This document shows positions 942-1,029 of a DNA stretch of 64,000 nucleotides, in pieces (position 1 is the stretch's first letter; the number at the start of each line of letters is the position of its first letter). Position numbers and translations under genes: made by a program. The notes under the pieces are model-generated. The model made no database searches. It saw only the letters and a list, made by a program, of their open reading frames with translations, and was not told the origin of the DNA. The DNA is from Eledone cirrhosa (lineage: Eukaryota), in NCBI GenBank assembly GCA_964016885.1, contig OZ024762.1, forward strand, positions 6,944,001-7,008,000, written 5' to 3'.

Positions 942-1029
942 GTGTCCGTCGAGTCTGCGGGTCCAGAATCAGACAGGTCCTCACTATGATCGCATCTCGA
1001 GCTGTCCGCCGGCGAAACAATTGTAACAC
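942..1029 (+). ncRNA. Hammerhead-like motif, variant CCG core, long stem II
   Basis: GTGT-CCGTCGA-GTCTGCGG...CCGCCGGC-GAAA-C-AATT-G-TA-ACAC. Stem I GTGT/ACAC and a palindromic loop III. Homologous to the motifs at 50410 and 59405. Confidence 0.55.

Follow-up and report, generated by a model that had tools for sequence, protein, structure and literature searches.

Penelope-like retroelements (PLEs) carry minimal hammerhead ribozymes which, in PMC4209133, are described as having a design suited to dimers and as cleaving slowly in vitro. These hammerheads always lie at the place in the element where the motifs described below were found (PMC4209133, PMC8557442), and inverted 5' tails are typical of PLEs (PMC8557442). 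The Hydra clade is recognized in PMC8557442 by DKT, G[LI]YRDD, CxCX5C, CxxC and CxH motifs. In deep mutagenesis, every other change in the CUGA turn of the core left little activity (PMC9901934). Perreault et al. (2011, PMC3088659) cover the natural core variants U4C (in a viroid), A6C and A6a, which are described as having low activity in vitro; in vivo, U4C is sufficient for the viroid to be infectious. The hammerhead of Poseidon_Ac cuts only with protein, and its catalytic mutants leave insertion in vitro unaffected (Frangieh et al. 2024, PMC11167929), that is, cleavage was dispensable in vitro in the one PLE tested; one paper suggests that PLE hammerhead motifs may just ride along. The link between PLEs and hammerheads, dimers and single core variants are already in print. 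In the literature covered, to which neither Lunse et al. (2017) nor the PMC4209133 figure supplements belong, we found no description of a PLE hammerhead with a long stem II arm or with U4C.

Three hammerhead motifs with a long stem II

We analysed a stretch of 64,000 nucleotides from Eledone cirrhosa (the window), in which the original prediction had placed three copies of a variant hammerhead. Direct reading found all three at their places and with their letters. They share a common layout: stem I, a 7-nt core that starts with CCG, a stem II of 60-61 nt, GAAA, a C-NNNN-G palindrome, UH and stem I again. Stem I has only 2-4 bp in these copies, as had been claimed, and all three span the predicted cut site. 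The features are as follows.

911-1078 (+), 3' end of a family B Hydra-type PLE, 5'-truncated, (TA)n at its end; 93% match to a long family B copy across 911-1078, the family being linked to a GIY-YIG ORF
942-1029 (+), long-armed hammerhead motif, family B; core CCGUCGA at 946-952 (U4C and A6U), site GUA, predicted cut after 1025
942-945/1026-1029 (+), its stem I
953-1013 (+), its stem II, 61 nt and irregular; from the base up, a helix of 9 positions, a bulge of 2 nt, 3 bp, an internal loop, 6 bp that include a bulge, and a GAUC/GAUC helix at the top
1014-1017 (+), its GAAA
1017-1024 (+), its self-complementary 8-mer (A15.1 to U16.1, loop AAUU), predicted intermolecular helix III
50334-50507 (-), 3' end of a subfamily A2 element, 5'-truncated
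50410-50496 (-), long-armed hammerhead motif, subfamily A2; core CCGACGA at 50492-50486, stem II at 50485-50426 (60 nt), stem I of 2 bp, loop III GCGC, site GUC, predicted cut after 50414
50406-50401 (-), AATAAA, immediately downstream of stem I of the A2 motif
50706-50783 (+), inverted PLE 'tail' upstream of the A2 copy, with other repeat DNA between; 78% match to the family A tail
59302-59505 (-), 3' end of a family A element, 5'-truncated, with an optional tail at about 59377-59302 and (TA)n at its end
59405-59490 (-), long-armed hammerhead motif, family A; core CCGAUGA at 59486-59480 (family: CCGACGA), stem II at 59479-59420 (60 nt), loop III GCGC, site GUC, predicted cut after 59408

A profile made from six family copies recovered exactly these three motifs in the window (E about 1e-19 to 1e-21) and gave no match in the reversed window or in 380 kb of reversed random DNA. 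With a covariance model of 19 copies, the three window copies included, these scored 80-83 bits, and the model otherwise picked ordinary short hammerheads at 20-28 bits. The comparison with Rfam Hammerhead_1 (RF00163) that had been proposed left the motif below threshold: the 59405 copy reached at best 14.4 bits against a gathering threshold of 34, in the wrong register, and neither the 942 copy nor a family C copy was matched. Among the 150 of 521 matches that were listed, an Rfam scan of the whole window gave microsatellite artefacts only. The alternative register of the Rfam alignment, an internal CUGAUCA beside GAAAC, was rejected; it lacks G8 and is not kept in families B, E and F. Taken singly, none of the window copies folds better than its shuffles (z -0.04, 0.01 and -0.73), which counts against a ribozyme reading and is expected of decayed insertions. 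Because the 50410 and 59405 copies belong to sister subfamilies, the window by itself holds two independent lineages only.

The window also contains eight ordinary PLE-type minimal hammerheads, which have CUGA cores, a stem II of 23-31 nt and TATATA or TATGTA in loop III, and fall into about three families:

1307-1376 (-), ordinary minimal hammerhead
6912-6981 (+), ordinary minimal hammerhead
11178-11239 (+), ordinary minimal hammerhead
11474-11540 (-), ordinary minimal hammerhead
11570-11636 (+), ordinary minimal hammerhead
43405-43471 (+), ordinary minimal hammerhead
47773-47842 (+), ordinary minimal hammerhead
58649-58711 (-), ordinary minimal hammerhead

A young and abundant repeat lies in inverted arrangement at 591-860 and 10760-10838 (in the DNA retrieved it gives 159 alignment rows, as much as 99% alike) and bears a hammerhead-like remnant, CAGAAGA...GAAA. 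Long tandem arrays occupy 12362-18279 (62-bp units), 31774-33505 (61 bp) and 24815-25524 (149 bp), the last resembling a SINE fragment that is also found at 50540-50660.

The host elements

All three window copies are Hydra-type PLE 3' ends, truncated at 5' and without an ORF of their own. The PLE origin that had been assumed for them was borne out elsewhere in the genome, where a GIY-YIG ORF stands on the same strand 1-1.7 kb upstream of the motif. Searches with the ORF ends found the motif downstream, on the same strand and within the 1.5-kb flank, at 15 of 30 loci for family B and 11 of 25 for family A; these counts include the seed locus, and the misses include copies cut off by the flank. 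Families D and E showed the linkage at two loci each, so that a place downstream of the ORF is established for families A, B, D and E. In family B, a microsatellite-rich 3' UTR of 1.5 kb separates the end of the GIY-YIG-like ORF from the motif. A single ORF with reverse transcriptase plus, at its C terminus, a GIY-YIG endonuclease stands upstream of the motif in family B (loci L127 and L095) and in family A (L249), the Pfam GIY-YIG match being weak (E 0.012). DKT (changed from DKG) is present in the family B ORF of L127 and G[LI]YRDD in the host proteins. By eye, the A and B proteins have a CxCX5C linker, CxxC and CxH near the end of the endonuclease and no CCHH. Related ORFs of L360, L243 and L246 have an N-terminal RWR/RWK motif; the family B N-terminus was not recovered. 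Most loci, as well as the window copies ending at 1078 and 59302, end in TA repeats, showing insertion into (TA)n.

We made a quick tree from 83 endonuclease fragments, all from this genome and none shorter than 95 residues (144 columns). In it, the proteins of A, D, B and E fell together (SH-aLRT 96), A being paired with D and B with E, in agreement with the grouping of the RNA motifs. Several other assignments were tried and rejected. A Naiad origin is contradicted by the published Naiad consensus sequences, which lack these motifs, and by the C-terminal endonuclease of the ORFs seen here; an assignment to 'Nematis' failed because the protein motifs match Hydra instead. A connection between family A and a second Hydra-like element, that of L135, was dropped: a long-armed motif was absent downstream in 19 of 19 other loci and in 17 of 18 longer extensions, the remaining one showing part of a family E copy, which lies on the opposite strand. 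Homology to a Neptune-like ORF (L140, L144), considered for family C, was discontinuous.

Other elements were also seen. The Neptune-like PLE ORF is open for 687 codons at L144:2787-4847 (+), occurs also in L092, L140 and L145, and is often near long-armed elements; our hammerhead descriptor found no hammerhead at its 3' end. At 3398-3580 (-) the window has a degraded fragment, C-terminal GIY-YIG, from a further Hydra-like PLE (52% to L169), and L139:1879-4355 (+) contains, by eye, fairly intact LTR-retrotransposon pol fragments (reverse transcriptase, RNase H and integrase).

Families and abundance

At least seven families share the long stem II, in roughly 10^4 copies in a genome of 3.0 Gb. 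First-look searches returned 3733 candidates for family A (59405 as query), 3403 for A2 (50410) and 2217 for B (942), and further 1818 for C, 1702 for D, 2264 for E and 2388 for F; these totals overlap between families and are not copy numbers. In 38 random 10-kb stretches we found four long-armed copies at three places, about 10 per Mb, which gives the order of 10^4 genome-wide with a wide margin. The families with CCG cores (A, A2, B and D) are young, having reached high copy number at 2-5% divergence. Close inverted pairs and (TA)n ends are common among long-armed copies, and some have an optional tail. The inversion junctions of paired copies are often within the arm near a GATC palindrome (L328, L329, L332, L333, L345, L227 and L083), which suggests that reverse transcriptase may pause or switch template near it.

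Family A is also present in sequencing run X4 of a second organism (917 contigs); no family B was seen in that run, which is no proof of absence. Pattern searches outside the genome gave at least 119 metagenome and 22 viral matches, all at chance level among the matches listed (best E 0.0067, partial). An unrelated hammerhead family with a canonical core, found at L090:1258 (+) and L127:3514 (+), has a stem II of 51-52 nt and a palindromic loop III of 7-8 nt and is a second long-armed type in this genome.

The catalytic core varies between families

The CUGA uridine turn in the 7-nt core is absent from the window copies: all three have C4, and the 942 copy also has U6. U4 and A6 are the uridine-turn bases, and U4C together with A6U removes both. 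We counted core letters in each family after removing partial copies, copies less than 80% alike and inversion junctions; copies retrieved through flanking DNA are called unbiased. Family B had C4 in 52/52 and U6 in 49/51 copies, and family D had C4 in 20/21 and U6 in 21/21, both giving CCGUCGA. Since the tree joins A with D and B with E, this core stands on two branches. In family A (CCGACGA), 32 of 35 selected copies had C4, as did 25 of 36 unbiased ones, and CCGACGA was seen in every A2 copy printed (8 loci). Family E has an 8-nt core, CUGAAAGA in 17 of 19 copies and CCGAAGGA in 2. Families C (U4 in 49/50) and F (U4 in 23/24) have canonical CUGA, as does family I, again with the long arm. 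U4C is therefore inherited in A, A2, B and D, as expected of the family-level variant, not decay, that the original prediction had envisaged, and its observation that the 942 copy deviates at A6 is correct, except that A6U is fixed in two families and is not private to this copy. A canonical family consensus, which had been expected to speak against the variant, is found for part of the group, in families C and F, and not in A, A2, B or D.

U4C and the long stem II had been taken as one variant, which was not supported. Families C and F carry the same arm with U4, so that the arm is older and wider than U4C. Conversely, a short-stem family (stem II of 20 nt) has C4 in 5/5 copies, and stem II measures 20-52 nt in other ordinary PLE hammerheads here. 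Within this genome, then, U4C and long arms vary independently of each other. The short-stem copies (CCGAAGA) are at L185:9033 (-), L273:9018 (-), L295:210 (+), L306:4758 (+) and L034:876 (-). Their loop III is identical to that of family B, of which they may be an arm-less relative.

The rest of the core is kept. In eight family-level rows, 0 of 9 essential core positions vary, compared with 40 of 50 stem columns (Fisher p 7e-6). C3, G5, G8, A9, G12, A13, A14 and A15.1-U16.1 are kept in all families, and H17 is C or A in the eight rows, never G. Families A, A2 and D have the G10.1-C11.1 pair, whereas B, C, E, F and I are mismatched at this place. For the arm of the 942 copy, quoted earlier as GTCTGCGG, the letters are right, but those at 953 and 954 are two private changes; about 99% of reads show A and C there, so that family B carries an A-C mismatch at 10.1-11.1.

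Individual copies decay at core CpGs. Pure CpG decay was nevertheless rejected as the source of U4 in family A, in which 11 of 36 copies had U4 and 3 had A5 (p 0.057; about 0.015 against other CpGs); by contig depth, U4 and A5 made up 25% and 8% in X1, and 56% and 9% in X4. This excess over the decay expectation makes a U4 sub-lineage of family A probable, though it was not separated.

Stem II, stem I and loop III

The stem II domain of 57-62 nt is an irregular hairpin with bulges and internal loops at matching places in all families, and the letters around the internal loop are near-invariant. We aligned 19 copies with MAFFT, which represent about 13 subfamilies, several of them by single copies. 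The hammerhead structure paired 86% of 586 cells. In agreement with the extra structured domain and covariation claimed earlier, 18 of 31 pairs were altered on both sides, compared with 13.4 +/- 1.6 in shuffles (3/500) and 4-8 with slid partners; the structure was drawn from the same 19 sequences and is thus favoured over the slid controls, and the counts, which come from about four independent lineages, are not R-scape statistics. RNAalifold independently predicted 14 arm pairs, 12 of them with double changes. In the eight family-level rows, 10 pairs were kept in at least seven rows with two Watson-Crick types (mean 1.5 and maximum 7 in 5000 re-pairings). The predicted fold of isolated arms was full or near-full in 7 of 10 copies, with z from -0.1 to -3.2.

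Stem I was paired in 90.5% of cells, with double changes in 4/4 pairs, and has only 2-4 bp in the window copies. It is seldom formed in the predicted ensembles of most families, which counts against a ribozyme reading. Loop III had been seen to switch from AATT to GCGC, and other families add AUAU and GAUU, making three Watson-Crick palindromes and one wobble form; 97.4% of cells could pair in trans, with a predicted duplex of -5.8 to -13.3 kcal/mol.

Possible function and alternative explanations

We favour, with moderate confidence, the reading that the minimal type I hammerhead at these PLE 3' ends, whose stem II of 57-62 nt is conserved, likely works as a ribozyme that is slow, dimeric and probably assisted by protein, and whose cleavage copying most likely does not require. 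Through the 8-nt palindrome, two motifs in one tandem transcript would pair, form helix III and be cut after GUC or GUA. The arm would be a platform for folding or for binding, in the simplest case of the protein that the element itself encodes; such a protein site is a conjecture. U4C, A6U and the one-base core insertion would lower the cleavage rate, and could be tolerated because new copies are made from uncut RNA, with which the lack of a pile-up of 5' ends at the cut site (below) agrees. Since the acid-base residues, the junction and the dimer palindrome are kept, slow dimer cutting is probably still the selected trait of the group. Either AATAAA or ATTAAA occurs within 18 nt after the site in 166 of 190 long-armed copies, compared with 2.6% in random DNA, and may mark transcript 3' ends as a putative polyadenylation signal. 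The same hexamers follow many short hammerheads as well.

The CCG families may instead carry a dead ribozyme whose fold is kept as a signal for recognition, dimerisation or 3'-end use in retrotransposition, an explanation that we consider unlikely but take seriously. Their high copy number at low divergence was reached despite the altered core, families B and D have lost both uridine-turn bases, and family B is also without G10.1-C11.1. The low activity measured for CUGA-turn changes (PMC9901934) suggests that CCGU families may be dead rather than weak, and the Poseidon_Ac mutants show how a PLE could do without cleavage in vitro (PMC11167929). Cutting has also left no genomic trace: 5' ends do not pile up at the predicted cut site, 3 of 144 secondary copies having theirs no more than 4 nt from it, although this test is weak because short 3' fragments are hard to detect. 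Against a dead ribozyme, G5, G8, A9, G12-A14 and H17 (never G) are fixed in the CCG families while the stems turn over, and U4C is active enough in vivo for the infectivity of a viroid (PMC3088659).

It is quite doubtful, in our view, that the long arm acts as a docking domain, alone or protein-bound, and allows efficient dimer cutting by CCGU cores that have neither uridine-turn base. If it did, there would be a natural hammerhead in tens of thousands of copies that is invisible to current descriptors. We are more sceptical of the proposal that a tertiary contact of the arm rescues the altered core and makes a fully active new hammerhead subtype. The matching bulges and internal loops, the near-invariant letters around the internal loop and the occurrence of CCGUCGA in two separate branches of the endonuclease tree (B and D) would fit such a contact. 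However, families C, F and I combine the arm with canonical cores, U4C is also found where the arm is absent, and no covariation of the arm with the core or with stem I was seen by eye in the 19-copy alignment.

That there is no hammerhead at all, only a decayed repeat with hairpins and core-like letters arisen by chance or from an inverted insertion, is extremely improbable and largely refuted: Hammerhead_1 is not reached, single copies decay at core CpGs and many are inverted within the arm, but nine core positions are invariant at family level, stems I and II show compensatory change, the palindromic loops differ in sequence, and the position in the element matches that of PLE hammerheads (PMC4209133, PMC8557442).

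One genome holds sister families with one arm and differing cores (canonical, U4C, U4C with A6U, and one extra nucleotide), all of them amplified. They are a ready matched core series with which to address the importance of cutting and the function of the arm. As Rfam and short-spacer descriptors miss the whole group, reports of PLEs 'without a hammerhead' may need rechecking.

Comparison with known systems

The long-armed motifs resemble Poseidon_Ac (PMC11167929) in the optional tail beyond the motif, which there reflects two reverse-transcription starts, in AT-rich targets and, as proposed here, in copies from uncut RNA. Poseidon_Ac belongs to another clade, however, and its canonical short motif overlaps the ORF start and has demonstrated activity.

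The host elements are close to the Hydra-clade PLEs, including Hydra-1_Obim (Craig et al. 2021, PMC8557442), with which they share protein motifs and (TA)n targets. The mismatch at the base of stem II is found in many published Hydra hammerhead rows as well (PMC8557442). Unlike the long-armed families, all 26 Hydra rows in File S2 of PMC8557442 have a CUGA start, arms of 3-7 bp and loops of 3-10 nt. Published Hydra stem II reaches about 26 nt; the insertion of about 60 nt in the original prediction is therefore right as a length, but it is the whole stem II domain, and the arm is longer by about 35-45 nt. Also, the 1.5-kb 3' UTR of family B exceeds what the usual Hydra-clade element of under 3 kb allows (PMC8557442). 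Two plant PLE rows in the table of PMC8557442 have loops of 29-35 nt and are flagged as deviating, and the Naiad 'half cores' described there are 35-50 nt apart, two of them in cephalopods, perhaps a hint that long-armed motifs were missed elsewhere.

The core changes lie at the same positions as the natural variants of PMC3088659, whose section on core variants does not contain the U4C and A6U double change; those variants are rare single cases, and here such changes have become fixed in young families, whose candidate copies number in the thousands.

A close likeness is to the minimal type I hammerheads that Cervera and de la Pena (2014, PMC4209133) describe from the pseudo-LTRs of PLEs in metazoans, which also have a 3' terminal place and a short stem I, a palindromic loop III for dimers and many sequence families per genome, with copies that are single or in close inverted pairs and mostly truncated. 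In contrast to the stem II of 7-8 bp with a small loop described in PMC4209133, stem II here is 57-62 nt long and irregular, the core has U4C, U4C with A6U or 8 nt at family level, and G10.1-C11.1 is absent in several families. Because the motif resembles a PLE minimal type I hammerhead in its predicted working, yet lacks the CUGA turn in the window copies and the short stem II, it is not filed under Hammerhead_1.
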